Shown piece by piece: positions 30,279 to 40,540 of a stretch of DNA of 64,000 nt. Position 1 is the first letter of the stretch, and each line of letters begins with the position of its first letter. Under the pieces are notes generated by a model that was not told the DNA's origin, made no database searches, and saw only the letters and a program-made list of their open reading frames with translations. The DNA is taken from sequence record NC_054910.1; one strand, given 5' to 3'. A program made the translations under genes and the position numbers. The DNA is from Escherichia phage EcNP1.

Positions 30279-30286
30279 TATAAATA
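30279..30286 (+). promoter_or_regulatory. late promoter (TATAAATA) for tail-fibre gene 34
   Basis: Exact TATAAATA ~35 nt upstream of the gene 34 ATG. Confidence 0.7.
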
Positions 30287-30320: not shown

Positions 30321-33300
30321 ATGGCCGAGATTAAAAGAAAGTTCAGAGCAGAAGACGGTCTGGACGCAGGTGGCGATAAAATAATCAACGTAGCTTTAGC
30401 TGATCGTACCGTAGGAACTGACGGTGTTAACGTTGATTACTTAATTCAAGAAAACACAGTTCAACAATATGATCCAACTCGTGGATATTTAAAAGATTTT
30501 GTAATCATTTATAATAATCGTTTTTGGGCAGCAACGGATAATATTCCAAAACCTGCTGGAAGTTTTAATAGAATTCGTTGGAAAGCATTACGTACTGATG
30601 CCGTATATACAACCGTATCATCTGGACCATATCAATTAAAATCCGGAGAAGCAATTTCAGTAGATACATCAGTTGGTAATGACATTGAGTTTAATTTACC
30701 ACCTTCTCCGCTTGATGGAGAAACCGTAATAATTCAAGATATTGGTGGAAAACCTGGTATAAATCAGGTTAAAATAAATTCTTCAAATCAGAGTATTGTT
30801 AATTTTAGAGGTGAACAAGTACGTTCAGTTCTAATGACTCATCCAAAGTCACAGATGATATTCATTTTTAATAATCGTTTGTGGCAAATGTATGTTGCTG
30901 ATTATAGCAGAGAAGCTGCGATTGTTACTCCATCGACTGCATATCAAGCACAATCTAATGATTTTATCGTGCGTAGATTTACTTCCGCTGCGCCGATTAA
31001 TATTAAACTTCCGAGATTTGCTAATCATGGCGATATTATTAATTTCGTTGATTTAGATAAATTAAATCCACTTTATCATACAATTGTCACGACATATGAT
31101 GAAACAACTTCAGTACAAGAAGTTGGAACTCATTCTATTGAAGGCCGTACATCAATTGACGGTTTCTTGATGTTTGATGATAATGAAAAATTATGGAGAT
31201 TGTTTGACGGGGATAGTAAAGCACGTTTACGCATTATAACAACTAATTCTAATATTCGTCCAAATGAAGAAGTTATGGTATTTGGTGCGAATAACGGAAC
31301 AGCCCAAACAATTGAACTTCAACTTCCAACCGATATTTCCATTGGTGATACTGTTAAAATTTCCATGAATTACATGAGAAAAGGACAAACAGTTAAAATC
31401 AAAGCTGCCGGTGAAGATAAAATTGCTTCTTCAGTTCAATTGCTGCAATTCCCAAAACGTTCAGAATATCCGCCTGAAGCTGAATGGGTGACTGTCCAAG
31501 AATTAGTTTTCAATGGTGAAACTAATTATGTTCCGGTTTTACAACTTGCTTATATAGAAGATTCTGACGGAAAATACTGGGTTGTACAACAAAACGTTCC
31601 AACGGTTGAAAGAGTCGATTCTTTAAATAATTCTACTAGAGCAAGATTAGGCGTAATTGCTTTAGCTACACAAGCTCAAGCTAACGTCGATTTAGAAAAT
31701 TCTCCACAAAAAGAATTAGCAATTACACCAGAAACATTAGCTAACCGTACTGCTACAGAAACTCGTAGAGGTATCGCAAGAATAGCAACTACTGCTCAAG
31801 TGAATCAGAACACCACATTCTCTTTTGCTGATGATATTATCGTCACTCCTAAAAAGCTGAATGAAAGAACTGCTACAGAAACTCGTAGAGGTGTTGCTGA
31901 AATTGCTACACAGCAAGAAACTAATGCAGGTACTGATGATACTACAATCATCACTCCTAAAAAGCTTCAAGCTCGTCAAGGTTCTGAATCATTATCTGGT
32001 ATTGTAACCTTTGTATCTACTGCAGGAGCTACTCCAGCTTCTAGTCGTGAATTAAATGGTACAAATGTTTATAATAAAAACACTAATAATTTAGTTGTTT
32101 CGCCTAAAGCTTTGGATCAGTATAAAGCTACTCCAACGCAACAAGGTGCAGTAATTTTAGCAGTTGAAAGTGAAGTAATTGCTGGACAAAGCCAAGAAGG
32201 ATGGGCAAATGCGGTTGTAACGCCAGAAACGTTACATAAAAAGACATCAACTGATGGAAGAATTGGTTTAATCGAAATTGCTACGCAAAGTGAAGTTAAT
32301 ACAGGAACTGATTATACTCGTGCAGTCACTCCTAAAACTTTAAATGACCGTAAAGCAACTGAAAGTTTAAGTGGTATAGCTGAAATTGCTACGCAAGTTG
32401 AATTCGACGCAGGCGTCGACGATACTCGTATCTCTACACCATTAAAAATTAAAACTAGATTTGATAGTACTGATCGTACTTCTGTTGTTGCTCTATCTGG
32501 ATTAGTTGAATCAGGAACTCTCTGGGACCATTATACCCTTAATATTCTTGAAGCAAATGAGACACAACGTGGTACACTTCGTGTAGCTACACAAGTTGAA
32601 GCTGCTGCAGGAACATTGGATAATGTTCTAATAACTCCTAAAAAGCTTTTAGGTACTAAATCTACCGAATCGCAGGAAGGTGTTATTAAAGTTGCAACTC
32701 GGTCTGAAACTGTAGCTGGAACGTCAGCAAATACTGCTGTATCTCCAAAAAATTTAAAATGGATTGTGCAGAGTGAACCTACTTGGGCAGCTACTACTGC
32801 GATAAGAGGTTTTGTTAAAACCTCATCTGGTTCAATTACGTTCGTTGGTAATGATACAGCGGGTTCTACGCAGGACTTAGAACTATATGAGAAAAATAAC
32901 TATGCAGTATCACCATATGAATTAAACCGCGTATTAGCAAATTATTTGCCGTTAAAAGCAAAAGCTGTAGATAGTAATTTATTAGATGGTTTAGATTCAC
33001 TCCAGTTCATTCGTAGGGATATTGCGCAGACGGTTAATGGTTCACTAACCTTAACGCAACAAACGAATCTGAGTGCCCCTCTTGTATCATCTAGTACTGC
33101 TACGTTTGGTGGATCAGTTTCGGCAAATAGTACATTAACTATTTCTAATACTGGAACGGCAACTCGTCTGATTTTTGAGAAAGGACCTCAAACTGGGACG
33201 AACCCAGCTCAAACGATGACAGTCAGAGTGTGGGGAAATCAATTCAGCGGTGAATCGGACACAACACGTTCTACTGTATTTGAAGTTAGTGATGAAACGT

Positions 33301-34190
33301 CTAGTCACTTTTATTCTCAGCGTAATAAAGCTGGTAATATAACATTTAATATCAATGGTACAGTAACACCGATAAATGTGAATGCTTCAGGCACATTGAA
33401 TGTGAATGGCGTAGCAACATTCGGCAGTTCGGTTACTGCTAATGGCGAATTTATCAGTAAATCATCGAATGCTTTTAGAGCAATAAACGGTGATTATGGA
33501 TTCTTTATTCGTAATGATGGTGCTAACACCTATTTTATGCTTACTGCATCGGGTGATCAGACCGGTGGATTTAATGGATTACGTCCTTTAACTATTAATA
33601 ATGCATCTGGTCAAGTAACGATTGGTGAAAGCTTAATCATTGCCAAAGGTGCTACTATAAGTTCAGGTGGTTTAACTGTTAACTCGAGAATTCGTTCTCA
33701 GGGTACTAAAACCTCTGATTTATATACCCGTGCGCCAACATCTGATACTGTAGGATTCTGGTCAATCGATATTAATGATTCAGCCACTTATAACCAGTTC
33801 CCGGGTTATTTTAAAATGGTTGAAAAAACTAATGAAGTGACTGGACTTCCATACTTAGAACGTGGCGAAGAAGTTAAATCTCCTGGTACATTGACTCAGT
33901 TTGGTAACACACTTGATTCGCTTTACCAAGATTGGATTACTTATCCAACTACCCCAGAAGCACGTACCACTCGCTGGACACGTACATGGCAGAAAACCAA
34001 AAACTCTTGGTCAAGTTTTGTTCAGGTATTTGACGGAGGTAACCCTCCTCAACCTTCAGATATAGGAGCGATCCCATCTGATAATGGAATAATAGGTAAT
34101 CTTACTATTCGCGATTTCTTGCGAATTGGTAATGTTCGCATTATTCCTGACCCAGTGAATAAAACTGTTAAATTTGAGTGGATTGAATAA
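30321..34190 (+). CDS. 34: long tail fibre proximal subunit gp34
   Basis: 1289 aa (T4 gp34 1289 aa); six tandem ~39-aa repeats (ITPETLANRTATETRRG... family); first gene of 34-35-36-37 operon. Confidence 0.97.
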   Translation: MAEIKRKFRAEDGLDAGGDKIINVALADRTVGTDGVNVDYLIQENTVQQYDPTRGYLKDFVIIYNNRFWAATDNIPKPAGSFNRIRWKALRTDAVYTTVSSGPYQLKSGEAISVDTSVGNDIEFNLPPSPLDGETVIIQDIGGKPGINQVKINSSNQSIVNFRGEQVRSVLMTHPKSQMIFIFNNRLWQMYVADYSREAAIVTPSTAYQAQSNDFIVRRFTSAAPINIKLPRFANHGDIINFVDLDKLNPLYHTIVTTYDETTSVQEVGTHSIEGRTSIDGFLMFDDNEKLWRLFDGDSKARLRIITTNSNIRPNEEVMVFGANNGTAQTIELQLPTDISIGDTVKISMNYMRKGQTVKIKAAGEDKIASSVQLLQFPKRSEYPPEAEWVTVQELVFNGETNYVPVLQLAYIEDSDGKYWVVQQNVPTVERVDSLNNSTRARLGVIALATQAQANVDLENSPQKELAITPETLANRTATETRRGIARIATTAQVNQNTTFSFADDIIVTPKKLNERTATETRRGVAEIATQQETNAGTDDTTIITPKKLQARQGSESLSGIVTFVSTAGATPASSRELNGTNVYNKNTNNLVVSPKALDQYKATPTQQGAVILAVESEVIAGQSQEGWANAVVTPETLHKKTSTDGRIGLIEIATQSEVNTGTDYTRAVTPKTLNDRKATESLSGIAEIATQVEFDAGVDDTRISTPLKIKTRFDSTDRTSVVALSGLVESGTLWDHYTLNILEANETQRGTLRVATQVEAAAGTLDNVLITPKKLLGTKSTESQEGVIKVATRSETVAGTSANTAVSPKNLKWIVQSEPTWAATTAIRGFVKTSSGSITFVGNDTAGSTQDLELYEKNNYAVSPYELNRVLANYLPLKAKAVDSNLLDGLDSLQFIRRDIAQTVNGSLTLTQQTNLSAPLVSSSTATFGGSVSANSTLTISNTGTATRLIFEKGPQTGTNPAQTMTVRVWGNQFSGESDTTRSTVFEVSDETSSHFYSQRNKAGNITFNINGTVTPINVNASGTLNVNGVATFGSSVTANGEFISKSSNAFRAINGDYGFFIRNDGANTYFMLTASGDQTGGFNGLRPLTINNASGQVTIGESLIIAKGATISSGGLTVNSRIRSQGTKTSDLYTRAPTSDTVGFWSIDINDSATYNQFPGYFKMVEKTNEVTGLPYLERGEEVKSPGTLTQFGNTLDSLYQDWITYPTTPEARTTRWTRTWQKTKNSWSSFVQVFDGGNPPQPSDIGAIPSDNGIIGNLTIRDFLRIGNVRIIPDPVNKTVKFEWIE

Positions 34191-34198
34191 GAGGTATT

Positions 34199-35314
34199 AT
34201 GGAAAAATTTATGGCAGAGTTTGGACAAGGATATGTCCAAACGCCATTTTTATCGGAAAGTAATTCAGTAAGATACAAAATAAGCATAGCGGGTTCTTGC
34301 CCGCTTTCTACAGCAGGACCATATGTTAAATTTCAGGATAACCCTGTCGGAAATCAAACATTTAGTGCAGGTCTTCATTTAAGAGTTTTTGACCCTTCAA
34401 CAGGAGCATTAGTTGATAGTAAGTCATATGCTTTTTCTACTTCAAATAATACTACATCAGCTGCTTTTGTTAGTTTCATGAATTCTTTGTCAAACAATAG
34501 ACTTGTTGCTATATTAACTAGCGGAAAGGTTAATTTTCCTCCTGAAGTGGTATCTTGGTTAAGGGGAGCAGGAACTTCAGTTTTTCCATCAGATTCAGTA
34601 TTGTCAAGATTTGACGTATCATATGCTGCTTTTTATACTTCTTCTAAAAGAGCTATTGCATTAGAGCATGTTAAACTAAGTAATAGAAAAAGCACAGATG
34701 ATTATCAAACTATTTTAGATGTTGTATTTGATAGTTTAGAAGACGTCGGAGCTACGGGATTTCCTAAAAGAACATATGAAAGTGTCGAGCAATTTATGTC
34801 AGCGGTTGGTGGAACTAATAACGAAATTGCGCGATTGCCAACTTCAGCTGCTATAAGTAAACTTTCTGACTATAATTTAATTCCTGGTGATGTTCTTTAT
34901 CTTAAAGCACAGTTATATGCTGATGCTGATTTACTTGATCTTGGAACTACAAACATATCCATTCGTTTTTATGATGCATCAAATGGTTATATTTCCTCTA
35001 CCCAAGCTGAATTTACTGGGCAAGCTGGGTCTTGGGAATTAAAGGAAGATTATGTAGTTGTTCCTGAAAATGCAGTCGGATTTACTATATATGCGCAGAG
35101 AACTGCTCAAGCTGGTCAAGGAGGAATGAGGAATTTAAGCTTTTCTGAAGTATCAAGAAATGGCGGCATTTCAAAACCTGCCGAATTTGGCGTCAACGGT
35201 ATTCGCGTTAATTATGTCTGTGAATCGGCTTCACCTCCAGATATAATGGTACTTCCTACACAAGCCTCTTCTAAAACTGGCAAAGTGTTTGGGCAAGAAT
35301 TTAGAGAAGTTTAA
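34199..35314 (+). CDS. 35: long tail fibre hinge protein gp35
   Basis: 371 aa (T4 gp35 372 aa); 8 nt after gene 34. Confidence 0.9.
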   Translation: MEKFMAEFGQGYVQTPFLSESNSVRYKISIAGSCPLSTAGPYVKFQDNPVGNQTFSAGLHLRVFDPSTGALVDSKSYAFSTSNNTTSAAFVSFMNSLSNNRLVAILTSGKVNFPPEVVSWLRGAGTSVFPSDSVLSRFDVSYAAFYTSSKRAIALEHVKLSNRKSTDDYQTILDVVFDSLEDVGATGFPKRTYESVEQFMSAVGGTNNEIARLPTSAAISKLSDYNLIPGDVLYLKAQLYADADLLDLGTTNISIRFYDASNGYISSTQAEFTGQAGSWELKEDYVVVPENAVGFTIYAQRTAQAGQGGMRNLSFSEVSRNGGISKPAEFGVNGIRVNYVCESASPPDIMVLPTQASSKTGKVFGQEFREV

Positions 35315-35319
35315 ACTGA

Positions 35320-35345
35320 GGGAGCCTTTGGGTTCCCTTTTTCTT
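35320..35345 (+). terminator. hairpin terminator after gene 35
   Basis: GGGAGCC-TTTG-GGTTCCC (one G-U pair) followed by TTTTTCTTT. Confidence 0.55.
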
Positions 35346-35353
35346 TATAAATA
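35346..35353 (+). promoter_or_regulatory. late promoter (TATAAATA) for gene 36
   Basis: Exact TATAAATA ~24 nt upstream of the gene 36 ATG. Confidence 0.65.
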
Positions 35354-35376: not shown

Positions 35377-36027
35377 ATGGCTGATTTAAAAGTAGGTTCA
35401 ACTGTGGGTGGATCTGTCATTTGGCATCAAGGAAATTTTCCATTGAATTCAGCCGGTGACGATGTACTCTACAAATCATTTAAAATATATTCAGAATATA
35501 ATAAACCGCAGGCAGCTGATAACGATTTCGTTTCTAAAGCTAATGGTGGTACTTACACCGGTCCAATTACTATTAATTACGGGGTAAATAGTTATCTTCA
35601 ATTAAGTAATAATGAAACCCCTATCCGAATTCGTTCTGGTGGCGGCACCGGTAATACTCTTGTAATTGGTGGATCTTCTGGTGGTATTAGTTTTAGACCT
35701 GCAGGTAGTGAAATCACTACTGGACAAATTACTATTACGCCAGAAGGTTTGACAACATTCACCAAAGCTGTAAAGGCTCCATCTGTAACTGTTACATCTA
35801 CTCCTTCCGCAGCATCAGATGCTACTCGTAAAGATTATGTTGATGGAGCAATAAATACTGTTACAGCAAATGCAAACTCTAGAGTGTTACGATCTGGTGA
35901 CACCATGACAGGAAATTTAACTGCGCCAAACCTTTTTTCACAGAATCCTGCATCTCAACCTTCACACGTTCCACGATTTGACCAAATCGTAATTAAGGAT
36001 TCTGTTCAAGATTTCGGCTATTATTAA
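35377..36027 (+). CDS. 36: long tail fibre distal connector gp36
   Basis: 216 aa (T4 gp36 221 aa); N-terminus [24 protein letters not shown]. Confidence 0.9.
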
Positions 36028-36035
36028 GAGGACTT

Positions 36036-39020
36036 ATGGCTACTTTAAAACAAATACAATTTAAAAGAAGCAAAACTGCAGGTCAACTTCCTGCCGCTTC
36101 AGTATTAGCCGAAGGTGAATTGGCTATTAATTTAAAAGATAAAACAATTTTCACAAAAGATGACTCAGGCAATGTTATAGAATTAGGTTTAAAATATGGA
36201 GGAACAATTGATGGTTCTTTAACTGTTAATGGAAATATAATTGGAAATTTAACAGGTAACGCTGCAACTGCAACCAAATTAAAAACAGCACGAAAAATTA
36301 ATGGTATATCCTTTGATGGGTCAAAAGATATCACGCTAACTCCATCCGACATAAATGTCAATAGCACAACGTTTATAAAAAATAACGGCGAATTACCTGT
36401 TGATGCTAATTTAGATACGTATGGGCCTGTTGAAGAATATCTTGGAGTTTGGTCGAAAGCAACTTCAACCAACGCTCAACCAGCAAATAAATTTCCAGAA
36501 GACAATGCTGTAGGTGTGCTAGAAGTATTTGTGGCCGGTCAATTTGCTGGTACTCAGAGATATACAACTAGATACGGAAATGTTTATATTCGTTCCTTGA
36601 CTGCTACATGGAACGGAGTAAATGGTCCGTGGAGTGTGTGGCGAAATATTCAATCTGGTACTCGTCCACTGTCAACAACAATTGATCTTAATGATCTAGG
36701 AGGCGCTGAACACTTTGGTTTGTGGCGAAATAGTTCAAATTCCATTGCTACATTTGACAGAAATTTCCCAGAAGAGGGGTCGTCAGCTCAAGGTCTTTTG
36801 GAAGTATATGAAGGTGGAAACTATTCTCGTACACAAAGATATACAACCAGATTTGGTGTTGTTTATACTCGTTGTCTTGCTGCCGCGTGGGATTCTACTG
36901 CGCCTAAATGGGGACCGTGGCAACAAGTCGGTAATGTCACACCAGCGACTTTTTATGATGGAGATCTGAATGATTTTAAAACTCCTGGGTTATATAATAT
37001 TTTAGGCACTGATGCCGTTATTAATTGTCCTACAGGCGAAGGTTTACCAGCCGTTATTGTTGGTTTGCTGGAAGTTAAACAGCGTGCTTCTGGTGGTGCT
37101 ATTTTCCAAAAATTTACTACTGCCGGAACAGGTGCAACTACCCGCGATCGTATTTTTGAGCGCGCATATACCGGCGGTGTGTGGGGTGAATGGAACGAAG
37201 TATACACATCTTATTCTCTACCAATTACTTTGGGTATGGGCGGTATTAAATCTAACTTAGCAGAGTTAGACTGGCAAACATTTGATTTTGTTCCTGGTAG
37301 TATGTTTAGCGTTCCTTTGAACAAAATAAAGAACATGCCAGCTAATATGGATTGGGGTACGATTGACGGAAACTTAATTATGTTTTCTGTTGGTCCTAGC
37401 GAGCACACCAGCACAGGACGTACTGTTCAGGTTTGGCGTGGTACTGTATCCCAGACAAACTACCGTTATTTTGTCGTTCGTGTATTCGGTAATTCAGGAA
37501 ATAGAACTTGCACAGTTCGTCGCGTTGTTCTTGAAGATGGTCGCCACAAATGGACAGCGCAACAAGATTTTAATGGCGCAGTTAACTTCGGTGCTCCTAC
37601 CAATTTTAACTCTACTGTTAACCTTAATAACACTACCACTTTTAAAACAGAAGTTAAATTTCGCTCATTGAATGCATTCCGTATGTATGGCGGAAAATTT
37701 GGTACAATTTTCCGTAATGATGGAGAGAGTCTTTATATTCTTTCCACCGACGAAGATGACCAAGATGGAAACTTTAATACAAATAGACCTTTCCGTTATG
37801 AATTGAGAACTGGCGATGTTACTTTAGGCGGTACTAGTGGTGCTAACGTTTTAAAATTAAAACGTGATTCTCTCACCGCATTTTTTGGCGGTGATATTAA
37901 CATGAAAGGCGTGCTGACTTTTGACGCCGGACGTTTAGGATCACGAGATTATTTTAAATTTAACCATTGGGGTGATAGTAATAATGCGCGTGATAACATT
38001 ATTCAGTTAGAAGACAGCAAAGGCGCTCATTTTTCCACTGAACGTACTTTAGCGACTGGTGCAATTAAGACTAAATTTTTTGGTGAAATTGAATCCGATG
38101 GTAAATTGGTTATTAAACGTCCGGGTGATTCTATTGTATTATCAACAACTGCTAGTAATTCTTTGCATATTCGTGGTGACATAGACGGGACTGGTAACTG
38201 GTATATTGGTAAGGGTGGTGCTGATAATGGATTAGCGTTATATAGTTATGCTACTAATGCTGGTGTATACATTACAAACGCAGGAGATATCACGCTAAGT
38301 CCAAAAGGCGTCGAAATGGCTCATGTTAATAACGTTCGATTATATGTTCATGGTGAACGTTGGACTGCTAGTCAACCAGGTGATTGGGGTAGTCAGTGGC
38401 AAGTGGAAGCGCCAATATTCGTCGATCATGGTTATGTTTCACAGGATTGTTATTATCCAATTATTAAAGGAAGAAGTGTAATCACCAATCAAGGGTTTGT
38501 AACTGCCGTCGATCTTGGTATTCGTCGTGTCAATAACAATTGGGGACAAGCAATTATTCGTGTTGGATCTGCGGAGGCATCGCCAGCGGCTGGACACCCT
38601 AACGCGGTATTTGAATTTCATTACGACGGTACTTTCTATTCTCCTGGTAATGGTAACTTTAACGATGTGTATATTCGTTCCGATGGTCGACTTAAGATCA
38701 ATAAAGAAGAGTTAGAAAACGGAGCACTTGAAAAAGTTTGCCGACTGAAAGTTTATATTTACGATAAAGTTAAGTCTATTAAAGACCGTAGTGTTATTAA
38801 ACGTGAAGTTGGTATTATTGCTCAGGACCTTGAAAAGGAATTACCGGAAGCTGTATCTAAAGTTGAAGTTGATGGATCTGATGTTCTGACAATTTCTAAC
38901 TCTGCTGTGAATGCTCTTTTAATTAAGGCTATTCAGGAAATGAGTGAAGAAATTAAAGAATTGAAAACGCCTTTCTTCACTAAAATTGCTCGCAAAATTA
39001 GTAATTATTTTAAATTCTAA
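36036..39020 (+). CDS. 37: long tail fibre distal subunit gp37 with C-terminal intramolecular-chaperone-like domain
   Basis: 994 aa; conserved N-terminus [35 protein letters not shown]; C-terminal ~113 aa (from ~38679) has SDGRLK motif and [25 protein letters not shown] typical of autocleaving fibre/tailspike chaperone domains. Confidence 0.93.
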
Positions 39021-39052
39021 CAACAAGGGGCTTTGCCCCTTTGGAGAAAATT

Positions 39053-39853
39053 ATGGCAGTAGTTGGTGTTCCCGGCTGGATTGGAAGTTCATCCGTAAAT
39101 GAAACAGGACAACGATGGATGAGTCAAGCGGCTGGTCAATTAAGATTGGGTGTTCCTTGCTGGATGAGCCAATTCGCCGGACGCTCAAGAGAGATTATTC
39201 ATACCGTAACAGCAAACCATAACTTTAATGGTCAATGGTTCCGTGATAGGTGCTTTGAAGCTGGCGGTGCACCCATTGTATTCAATATTGTTGGTGATAT
39301 CGTTTCTTATTCTAAAGATGTGCCACTTTTCTTTATGTATGGGGATACGCCTAATGAATATGTTGTTCTTAATATTCATGGTGGTGTTCATATGTGGGGT
39401 CGTGGTGGTAATGGTGGATACACTCACTCAGGAGGCGACGGTAACGGTACACAAGGCGGTCATGTTATTCAAAATGATATCGGTGGACGGCTTCGTATTT
39501 GGAACTACGGTGTTATAGCTGCTGGGGGTGGCGGCGGCGGTGGTATTGCATATCGTCCACACTCAGGGGCAAACTGGCAAGATATCGGTGGCGGCGGCGG
39601 TCGACCTTTCGGTGGTGCTGGCGGTGGCGGTTATTCCGGTGGTGCTGCTTCGTATGAAGGTCCGGGTGGTGGTTATGACTATGGTAACGCACACTCCGGC
39701 GCAGGTGGTAATGCTGGTGCTGCTGGTCAGAATGCATGGTCTGACGGCGGTAAAGTTCTTAAAGTTGGTGTTGGTGGTGCGTCTGGTCATGCAGTGTTTG
39801 GGTCTTCTCCAACTTGGGGTGCTGTTGGAACAATTTACGGACCAAGAGTATAA
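39053..39853 (+). CDS. 38: T2-type receptor-binding adhesin gp38 (glycine-rich motifs + hypervariable segments)
   Basis: 266 aa from ATG 39053 (track start 39041 is TTG); N-terminus [13 protein letters not shown]; poly-Gly motifs [38 protein letters not shown] separated by short variable segments. Confidence 0.88.
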
Positions 39854-39883: not shown

Positions 39884-40540
39884 ATGGCAGCACCTAGAAT
39901 ATCATTTTCGCCCTCTGATATTCTGTTGGGTGTTCTAGATCGCTTGTTCAAAGATAATGCTACCGGGAAAGTTCTTGCTTCCCGGGTAGCTGTCGTAATT
40001 CTTTTGTTTATAATGGCGATTGTTTGGTATAGGGGAGATAGTTTCTTTGAGTACTATAAGCAATCAAAGTATGAAACATACAGCGAAATTATTGAAAAGG
40101 AAAGAAATGCACGCTTTGAATCTGTCGCCCTGGAACAACTCCAGATAGTTCATATATCATCTGAGGCAGACTTTAGTGCGGTGTATTCTTTCCGCCCTAA
40201 AAACTTAAACTATTTTGTTGATATTATAGCATATGAAGGAAAATTACCTTCAACAATAAGTGAAAAATCACTTGGAGGATATCCTGTTGATAAAACTATG
40301 GATGAATATGCAGTTCATTTAAATGGACGTCATTATTATTCCGACTCAAAATTTGCTTTTTTACCAACTAAAAAGCCTACTCCCGAAATAAATTACATGT
40401 ACAGTTGTCCATATTTCAATTTGGATAATATCTATGCTGGAACAATAACCATGTACTGGTATAGAAATGATCATATAAGTAATGACCGCCTTGAATCAAT
40501 ATGTTCTCAGGCGGCCAGAATATTAGGAAGGGCTAAATAA
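39884..40540 (+). CDS. t: holin T
   Basis: 218 aa (T4 holin 218 aa); N-terminus MAAPRISFSPSDIL, single TM segment VAVVILLFIMAIVWY. Confidence 0.95.
   Translation: MAAPRISFSPSDILLGVLDRLFKDNATGKVLASRVAVVILLFIMAIVWYRGDSFFEYYKQSKYETYSEIIEKERNARFESVALEQLQIVHISSEADFSAVYSFRPKNLNYFVDIIAYEGKLPSTISEKSLGGYPVDKTMDEYAVHLNGRHYYSDSKFAFLPTKKPTPEINYMYSCPYFNLDNIYAGTITMYWYRNDHISNDRLESICSQAARILGRAK

Follow-up and report, generated by a model that had tools for sequence, protein, structure and literature searches.

We have analyzed the long tail fibre locus of Escherichia phage EcNP1, taking as the window a stretch of 64,000 nucleotides from sequence record NC_054910.1. The window belongs to a Tequatrovirus, and in this region it is 99.9% identical to Escherichia phage vB_EcoM_Nami. 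The genes g36 (35377–36027), g37 (36036–39020), g38 (39053–39853) and t (39884–40540) follow each other on the + strand, which carries all the features described here. g36 encodes the small distal subunit of the fibre, which links gp35 with gp37, and was identified by Pfam Phage_T4_gp36 (27.7 bits) and by synteny with Nami, T2, S16 and T4. The fibre module ends at gene t, which encodes the holin (Pfam Phage_holin_T, 390.9 bits). g38 lies directly 3' of g37 and 5' of t, and the same order is found in Nami, Ox2, T2, S16, RB32 and PP01.

An exact match to the T4-type late promoter motif TATAAATA is present at 35346–35353, 24 nt 5' of the start of g36, and a predicted late promoter is annotated at the same position in phages fPS-2 and fPS-65. 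Over the whole window the motif is found 8 times against 9.5 expected. As the count is at the level of chance, its frequency was dropped as statistical evidence and the argument for a late promoter is drawn from position alone; only the occurrences 5' of g34 and g36 are informative. The motif at 35346 is likely to be the start of a late transcript comprising g36, g37 and g38.

g37 encodes the precursor of the distal subunit of the long tail fibre, a protein of 994 amino acids that matches PHROG 1699 ('long tail fiber protein distal subunit') over its full length with E = 1.5e-225. Residues 1–66 (36036–36233) are a conserved N-terminal segment common to the gp37 proteins of T2 and T4, with 76% and 79% identity respectively over the first 66–67 residues, and we infer that it forms the junction with gp36. 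Residues ~113–400 (36372–37235) contain three tandem repeats of ~93 amino acids, aligned as three segments using MAFFT, with the motif G(L/V)LEV...Q(R/K)(Y/F)TT...R...W..W; the sequence RYTTR occurs at residues 175 and 268. Residues 106–325 match PHROG 4618 ('tail collar fiber protein', E = 2.8e-40). Residues 521–587 (37596–37796) form a domain related to the C-terminal trimerization domain of gp34 (Pfam Gp34_trimer, 45.8 bits), and a sequence search of the PDB with gp37 matches the T4 gp34 entries 5NXH and 4UXE.

The C-terminal section of gp37, residues 882–994 (38679–39017), is an intramolecular chaperone domain of the Peptidase_S74 family. The preliminary description of this locus, made from the sequence without database searches, had noted a segment of ~113 amino acids containing SDGRLK at the end of the 994-residue protein, and had likened it to the self-cleaving chaperone domains of phage fibres and tailspikes. 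The open reading frame has exactly 113 residues from Ser882 to the C-terminus with SDGRLK at 882–887, and the likeness was borne out by Pfam, profile and fold comparisons. PF13884 matches residues 882–940 with 43 bits, against a cut-off of 22, over profile positions 1–57 of 58, so that the chaperone domain occupies the extreme C-terminus of the fibre subunit. A serine and a lysine located five residues downstream are the catalytic pair of the S74 chaperone family. The putative catalytic residues of EcNP1 gp37 are Ser882 (38679–38681) and Lys887 (38694–38696), contained within a conserved S-D-x-R-x-K motif. These two residues and Asp883 are invariant in 27 diverse homologues that have differing upstream domains.

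A search of the PDB with the single sequence of the gp37 C-terminus matched S16 gp37 only, and weakly (E = 3.6e-4). A four-sequence profile matched the self-cleaving MyRF intramolecular chaperone (ICA) 7DC3 with E = 7.6e-8 and the tail fibre 8JOV with E = 1.6e-7; the profile match to 6F45_A (E = 1.6e-51) involves the S16 sequence that is itself part of the profile. The chaperone part of the AlphaFold (AF2) model has pLDDT of 80–92, and a fold search with it gave nothing but chaperone domains among the best 11 PDB matches (7DC3, 3GUD, 4UW8 and 3GW6). The strongest was 7DC3, with E = 2e-4 and a target-normalized TM-score of 0.67, while the other three were weaker (E = 0.06–0.3), the comparison being one of a monomer model and not of trimeric packing. 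The chaperones of endosialidase K1F (3GW6), GA-1 (3GUD), T5 pb1 (4UW8) and MyRF share with the EcNP1 domain their place at the C-terminal end of a trimeric fibre, the S-D-x-R-x-K sequence at the start of the domain, and a similar fold in which β-hairpins are followed by a long C-terminal helix. Yet their identity to it is only 11–22%, and 7DC3 alone gave E < 0.001 in the fold search. Residues 953–977 had been described as an amphipathic helix. In the AlphaFold model they do belong to a long helix (212–248 of the modelled fragment, corresponding to gp37 955–991), but the amphipathic character is not above chance, with a hydrophobic moment of 0.246 that was reached by 23% of shuffled sequences.

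The predicted autocleavage site is Arg881^Ser882 (38676–38681), which aligns with DLNVS^SDRRIKK in S16 and with NVYIR-SDIRLK in T2. A cut before Ser ~882 had been proposed in the preliminary description, and this position coincides with the conserved serine, with the lysine five residues later, and with a prediction already in print. The sequence DVYIR^SDGRLKI is identical in the Yersinia phages fPS-65, fPS-2 and fPS-90, and was predicted as the cleavage site of their near-identical gp37 proteins (Salem et al. 2021, PMC7917993). The gp37 of fPS-65 also has 994 amino acids and is 87.8% identical to that of EcNP1. In that paper the site was assigned by analogy to S16, where a chaperone of 113 residues is autocleaved. 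The chaperone domain of T2 gp37 is 45% identical to that of EcNP1 over 125 residues, although the T2 protein differs in having 1341 amino acids and another shaft and tip. Processing of T2 gp37 with removal of ~100–120 C-terminal residues was reported in 1986 (Drexler, Riede and Henning, as recounted in PMC3157838). For the findings of Drexler 1986, Drexler 1989 and Dunne 2018 we follow the accounts in PMC3157838, PMC7917993, PMC6851490 and PMC12892980. By analogy with these proteins, EcNP1 gp37 is predicted to cleave itself between Arg881 and Ser882.

Residues 744–881 (38265–38678), immediately preceding this site, are an Ox2-type distal domain and the predicted end of the mature fibre. The domain is 98% identical to the C-terminal fragment of gp37 of phage Ox2 (X05675, from the Henning laboratory, and OmpA-specific). 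That level of identity extends over the last 251 residues of the Ox2 protein, including the chaperone domain and DVYIR^SDGRLK, with four substitutions in the fragment. The domain cannot be aligned with the gp37 of T2 or S16 until ~10 residues before the cleavage site. In an AlphaFold monomer model it has low confidence (pLDDT 34–57), and with pLDDT below 57 the model was set aside as a structure of the tip. The last strand, DVYIR, is predicted to be the docking surface for gp38, by analogy with the S16 tip, whose structure is described in PMC7917993 and PMC6851490. The domain, which is of the Ox2/fPS-65 type, has no sequence relationship to the tips of S16 and T2. There is a small chance that it provides a structurally new docking platform for gp38, and it may add a second specificity, such as the dependence on LPS that is reported for Ox2 and RB32. 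Its junction with the conserved chaperone lies only ~10 residues ahead of the cut; if this reading were true, so tight a recombination point would allow tips to be swapped independently of adhesins.

The interval between g37 and g38 (39026–39046) contains a hairpin with the stem GGGGC/GCCCC at 39027–39039, followed by the Shine-Dalgarno sequence GGAG of g38 at 39043–39046. The calculated folding energy of the hairpin is −14.5 kcal/mol, its z-score of −1.63 is not significant, and a terminator scan made no call there. A role of the hairpin at 39026–39040 as a terminator or regulator is not supported by these results. The annotation of fPS-65 has a terminator in the equivalent intergenic place, on the opposite strand. 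We take the start of g38 as the ATG at 39053, downstream of GGAG, in place of the TTG at 39041 given by a mechanical list of open reading frames. This yields a protein of 266 amino acids, as annotated in Nami and Ox2.

gp38 is a receptor-recognizing adhesin of the T2/Ox2 type, as the preliminary description had proposed for the gene following g37. It matches the Pfam families GP38 (PF05268, 223.5 bits) and Gp38_N (PF21721, 69.1 bits), for each of which the cut-off is 25, and no further Pfam family at E ≤ 0.01. It matches PHROG 2056 with E = 8e-108. Among sequences in the PDB, HMMER matched the gp38 proteins of PP01 (E = 2e-61) and S16 (E = 2e-43). The AF2 model has pLDDT of 84.9, and its only significant PDB matches are the structures of PP01 and S16 gp38, 9V85 and 6F45_D, with target-normalized TM-scores of 0.87 and 0.79 respectively. 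On the basis of this model the protein probably adopts a fold comprising a β-helix and a polyglycine-II sandwich. Residues 1–42 (39053–39178), identified by Gp38_N, form the N-terminal attachment domain. This contains Trp9, Trp22 and Trp37, which are invariant in comparison with Ox2, T2 and S16 and reach a conservation of at least 90% among 68 sequences. From the role of their counterparts in the S16 structure they would act as prongs inserted into gp37. The C-terminal 156 residues are 36% glycine, with runs at 158–164 (G7), 179–183 (G5), 190–193 (G4) and 205–207 (G3).

The specificity region of gp38, residues 116–240 (39398–39772), was delimited by column entropy over 68 homologues. Within it lie glycine-rich motifs at 116–121, 158–164, 179–190 and 216–225, and hypervariable segments at 122–134, 165–178, 191–204, 208–215 and 226–240. 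The mean column entropy is 0.15–1.0 bits in the glycine motifs versus 1.7–2.5 bits in the variable segments. The variability is thus concentrated between the glycine motifs, in keeping with the earlier account of polyglycine motifs separated by variable segments.

The variable segments were compared with those of adhesins of known receptor, as the preliminary description had proposed. Identity over the hypervariable segments is 97% to Ox2, 89% to RB32, 88% to FL08 and 89% to AV119, compared with 6–27% to T2, T6, PP01, S16, M1, FL18, fPS-2 and fPS-65, a set comprising users of Tsx, OmpC, OmpF/FadL and LPS together with a second OmpA group. The T2 segments (receptors FadL and OmpF) are 16% identical, and those of the fPS phages (LPS core, or OmpF plus LPS) are 11–27% identical. 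Infection by FL08, AV119 and Ox2 depends on OmpA (PMC12032242), and so does that by RB32 (PMC3157838). Since the hypervariable loops of EcNP1 gp38 are of the Ox2/RB32/FL08/AV119 type, its primary receptor is predicted from sequence most likely to be OmpA, bound by a 'type 1' adhesin.

An architecture as described above might nevertheless recognize a different primary receptor such as OmpC, Tsx, another outer-membrane protein, or LPS alone. This is conceivable, as gp38 can be retargeted by a few changes in its loops. Single loop substitutions are known to shift receptor use, according to what is related in PMC3157838 among other sources; changes of a few residues in HVS2 and HVS3 shift the receptor, and Ox2 and RB32 depend on multiple factors (Trojet et al., PMC3157838). 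Mutants of Ox2 gp38 with altered receptor specificity are reported to have been made by Henning's group. The gp38 of Ox2 also has 266 amino acids and is 96.6% identical to that of EcNP1, with nine substitutions. Six of these are in the N-terminal and β-helix part (positions 52, 53, 55, 72, 80 and 83), and the others are N174K, G193R and A257V. Two, at N174 and G193, fall within the specificity region, so that EcNP1 is unlike Ox2 there. However, both N174 and G193 are also present in AV119 and FL08, while RB32 has G193 but a lysine at 174 like Ox2, and all three phages are OmpA-dependent by experiment. Moreover, identity in the hypervariable segments is at most 27% to every non-OmpA adhesin compared. 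We therefore consider a primary receptor other than OmpA to be unlikely, and retain OmpA as the prediction. According to Trojet et al. (PMC3157838), both Ox2 and RB32 need LPS in addition to OmpA to be fully infective, so 'OmpA only' may be too simple a description. By analogy, infection by EcNP1 may depend on the composition of the LPS core as well.

Under a different reading the mature fibre would keep its S74 domain, either uncut or cut but not released, and gp38 would attach elsewhere or only transiently, serving chiefly in assembly like the gp38 of T4. Cleavage of EcNP1 gp37 is argued from its homologues, and in T2-like phages gp38 acts first as a chaperone and then stays attached (Salem et al., PMC7917993). 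Against this reading, the catalytic serine and lysine of gp37 are intact and invariant, the docking tryptophans of gp38 are kept, and processing has been demonstrated for the gp37 proteins of T2 and S16, according to the second-hand accounts cited above. S16 provides a structural parallel. As its tip is described in those accounts (PDB 6F45; Dunne et al. 2018), the crystal structure has one gp38 capping the cleaved end of a trimeric gp37 whose chaperone of 113 residues is autocleaved, and the gp38 has the same parts, i.e. the attachment domain with tryptophan prongs, the β-helix and the polyglycine-II sandwich. S16 differs in that its gp38 is 48% identical overall and 14% identical in the hypervariable segments, that its receptor is the OmpC of Salmonella, and that its gp37 cannot be aligned with the EcNP1 protein upstream of the cleavage site. 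The gp38 of T2 is likewise placed at the fibre tip in the work of Riede et al. (1987), as reported in the same accounts. T4 also has a gp38 gene between g37 and t, and shares the conserved N-terminus of gp37 and some shaft domains, but its gp37 has no stretch that can be aligned with the chaperone domain at 882–994, and EcNP1 gp38 has no similarity to T4 gp38 (best BLASTP E = 3.5), which rules it out as a T4-type assembly chaperone. In T4 the receptor is bound by gp37 itself. Retention of the S74 domain with gp38 as an assembly factor is thus very improbable for EcNP1. Finally, that the likeness to chaperone and adhesin arises by chance or from composition, such as the glycine-rich low complexity of gp38, whose glycine-rich half is masked by the BLAST filter in many matches, is refuted by Pfam scores far above the cut-offs, by the HMMER matches of gp38 to solved structures, by fold matches of the gp38 model confined to gp38 structures, and by the presence of gp38 sequences at least 95% identical in 36 phage records.

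We therefore regard it as highly probable that the locus is the distal receptor-recognition module of a long tail fibre of the T2/Ox2 type, in which gp37 is self-cleaved and capped by gp38, with OmpA as the predicted receptor. The gene structure, the domain membership, the conserved catalytic and docking residues, the fold models, the pattern of variability and the likeness to adhesins of known receptor are observed here; from the related phages we infer cleavage, a stoichiometry of one gp38 per gp37 trimer, and binding to OmpA. The module would operate as follows. g36, g37 and g38 would be expressed late, probably from the promoter at 35346. gp37 would be made as the 994-residue precursor, in which the chaperone (882–994) would nucleate trimerization and folding of the fibre. 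The chaperone would then cut itself off between Arg881 and Ser882, with Ser882 and Lys887 acting as the catalytic pair, exposing a new trimeric end of gp37 that finishes in the strand DVYIR. A single gp38 would cap this end, held by the three-helix attachment domain at its N-terminus, whose Trp9, Trp22 and Trp37 would be the prongs. The loops of the polyglycine-II sandwich, i.e. the hypervariable segments between the glycine motifs, would bind the host receptor. Being of the Ox2/RB32/FL08/AV119 type they would direct the phage to OmpA as its primary receptor, and the composition of the LPS core may also matter.

Both the observation and the interpretation given in the preliminary description are correct, and there is nothing new in either. 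The processing of gp37, the S74 chaperone, the polyglycine adhesin gp38, and the prediction of receptor from gp38 sequence have all been published already. In essence the adhesin is the one known from the classic phage Ox2, adhesins of exactly this type are present in dozens of sequenced phages, and the whole arrangement is textbook for T2-type phages. No new biology is added, and the practical result is the prediction of an OmpA 'type 1' adhesin, the broader-range kind. As the module fixes the primary host specificity of the phage, this is useful for annotation, and for the prediction of host range in phage therapy and typing.

The g37-g38 module belongs to a T-even (Tequatrovirus) long-tail-fibre block, in which g34 (30321-34190), g35 (34199-35314), g36 (35377-36027), g37 (36036-39020; 994 aa) and g38 (39053-39853) are followed by the holin gene t (39884-40540), with g36 to t on the plus strand. 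The late-promoter motif TATAAATA occurs just 5' of g34 (30279-30286) and again between g35 and g36, just 5' of the latter (35346-35353), where it is directly preceded by a terminator-like hairpin 3' of g35 (35318-35339). Features corresponding to both motifs and to the hairpin are annotated at matching places in the records of the Yersinia phages fPS-2 and fPS-65. A GC-rich hairpin, GGGGC-TTT-GCCCC, lies within 39026-39046, after the stop codon of g37 and before the Shine-Dalgarno sequence of g38, with a folding z-score of only −1.63. The TTG at 39041 that adjoins its stem at the 3' edge was called as the g38 start by the ORF lister, but this is an artefact; the true start is the ATG at 39053 following GGAG, giving 266 aa, the same length as in the phages Nami and Ox2. 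Residues 58-112 of gp35 match the Pfam ILEI domain PF15711 (33.7 bits, cut-off 27), which we take to be the previously described 'GG domain' that connects gp35 of phages with FAM3-like proteins.

The module is ordinary, well populated and already known. Over its 3818 bases the g37-g38 stretch differs from Escherichia phage vB_EcoM_Nami at two nucleotides (99.9% identity) and is 90-96% identical to many further coliphages, with at least 80% of it covered in 96 phage records; a gp38 at least 95% identical is found in at least 36. One record, OR584013.1, gives Pseudomonas coronafaciens as the host and is titled 'Pseudomonas phage PsgM02F'. Its whole module is 94.9% identical, and its gp38 shares 97.4% identity with the OmpA-type coliphage adhesin described here; the stated host seems questionable.

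By sequence and predicted fold the C-terminus of gp37 is an S74 intramolecular chaperone, as the preliminary description had proposed. SDGRLK occupies residues 882-887, and the 113 residues from Ser882 to the end include a Pfam Peptidase_S74 match at residues 882-940 (43 bits, cut-off 22) that begins at profile position 1. An alignment with Ox2, T2 and S16 shows no change at the S, D, R or K of S-D-x-R-x-K. V-Y-I-R-S-D-x-R-L-K is kept across 27 more diverse homologues that have several unrelated upstream domains, with S882, D883 and K887 unchanged in every one. A profile of four such domains retrieves from the PDB 7DC3, the ICA domain of MyRF, which cleaves itself (E 7.6e-8), as well as the phage tail fibre 8JOV (E 1.6e-7). 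AlphaFold pLDDT is 80-92 across the domain, and a PDB fold search with the model gives nothing but chaperone domains among its best 11 matches (7DC3, E 2e-4; 3GUD, 4UW8, 3GW6). Residues 953-977, described earlier as an amphipathic helix, do fall within a long helix of the model; their hydrophobic moment is not above that of shuffled sequences, and 'amphipathic' is the sole element of that description to fail a test. The N-terminus and shaft domains are common to T4 gp37, in which residues 882-994 find no aligned counterpart.

This reading of gp37 is already published. In S16 the last 113 residues are a chaperone autocleaved at DLNVS^SDRRIKK, exposing the gp38 docking surface, and in the fPS phages a cut was predicted at DVYIR^SDGRLKI (Salem et al. 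2021, PMC7917993). The latter sequence is identical in the present gp37, and fPS-65 gp37, also 994 aa, is 87.8% identical overall. Processing of T2 gp37 goes back to a 1986 report, so far as it is relayed by Trojet et al. (PMC3157838).

Upstream of the cut the gp37 domain is Ox2/fPS-65-like; the alignment shows no relation to T2 or S16 except over the last ~10 residues before the site, a tight junction remarked on earlier by Salem et al. (PMC7917993). The monomer model of this domain is unreliable, and it is the only structurally uncharacterised part of the module. That is the basis for a modest novel reading, that residues ~744-881 form a structurally new docking platform for gp38, which we consider unlikely. 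Residues 782-881 (38379-38678) align weakly with T2 and T4 gp37 at ~690-790 (22-24% identity, E ~1e-5; motif APxFxD...YxPIxKxR), in an internal domain and not the tips, which suggests that the terminal domain is a shaft-type one put to new use. The N-terminal half of gp37 contains three tandem repeats of ~93 aa (residues ~113-400; 36372-37235) with the motif G-L-LEV...Q-R-Y-T-T-R...W..W. They match PHROG 4618 'tail collar fiber protein' (E 2.8e-40) and look like knob-type fibre domains, and this region gives no alignment with T2 or T4 gp37.

The preliminary description was also borne out for gp38. Pfam assigns it to the T2/S16-type adhesins (GP38, 223.5 bits; Gp38_N, 69.1 bits), and it has no similarity to T4 gp38 (E 3.5). 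Its glycine runs are G7, G5, G4 and G3, with glycine making up 36% of the C-terminal 156 residues. The sequence matches the solved PP01 gp38 RBD (9V85, 2e-61) and S16 gp38 (6F45_D, 2e-43), and these are the only PDB matches of the AlphaFold model (pLDDT 85; target-normalised TM-scores 0.87 and 0.79 respectively). In the S16 structure three gp38 tryptophans insert into gp37 (PMC6851490), and all three are kept here as W9, W22 and W37. The protein has a mosaic make-up: its first 115 residues share 99% identity with gp38 of the Tsx phage T6, whereas its specificity region is of the Ox2 type (98% identity to Ox2, only 49% to T6). A possible rearrangement is seen outside this DNA in P0077, a 303-aa protein from a 25.7-kb contig of an 'E. 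coli' assembly, in which the N-terminal half of a gp38 adhesin runs as far as the second glycine run and is joined there, with nothing between, to a chaperone domain with VYIRSDRRLK (PF13884, PF05268, PF21721). The fusion may have arisen by true recombination or deletion, or else in the assembly of the reads.

Variable segments do separate the glycine motifs. Column entropy over 68 homologues is 1.7-2.5 bits in the segments compared with 0.15-1.0 in the motifs, and defines five hypervariable segments at residues 122-134, 165-178, 191-204, 208-215 and 226-240, reproducing the published layout (PMC12032242). Over the whole protein gp38 is 96.6% identical to that of the classic OmpA phage Ox2 (X05675). 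In the hypervariable columns only, identity is 97% to Ox2 (OmpA), 89% to both RB32 (OmpA plus LPS) and AV119 (OmpA), and 88% to FL08 (OmpA). It falls to 27% for fPS-2 (OmpF plus LPS), 16% for each of T2 (FadL/OmpF), PP01 (OmpC) and M1 (OmpA, second group), 14% for S16 (Salmonella OmpC), 11% for fPS-65 (LPS core), 9% for T6 (Tsx) and 6% for FL18 (OmpA, type 2). The two differences from Ox2 in the specificity region, N174 and G193, are both present in AV119 and FL08; RB32 has G193, but Lys at 174 as in Ox2. AV119 and FL08 need OmpA, and their 'type 1' group tolerates all tested OmpA loop variants (Lutz et al. 2025, PMC12032242). RB32 and Ox2 depend additionally on LPS composition (Trojet et al., PMC3157838). 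Given the likeness of the loops to those of OmpA phages and the LPS dependence of RB32 and Ox2, OmpA is the predicted primary receptor, and infection may also depend on the LPS core.

The observation made earlier on the g37-g38 module is thus confirmed and its interpretation supported. The analysis contributes a specific receptor prediction (OmpA, type 1) and places the specificity loops and the predicted cleavage site, Arg881^Ser882, at exact coordinates.
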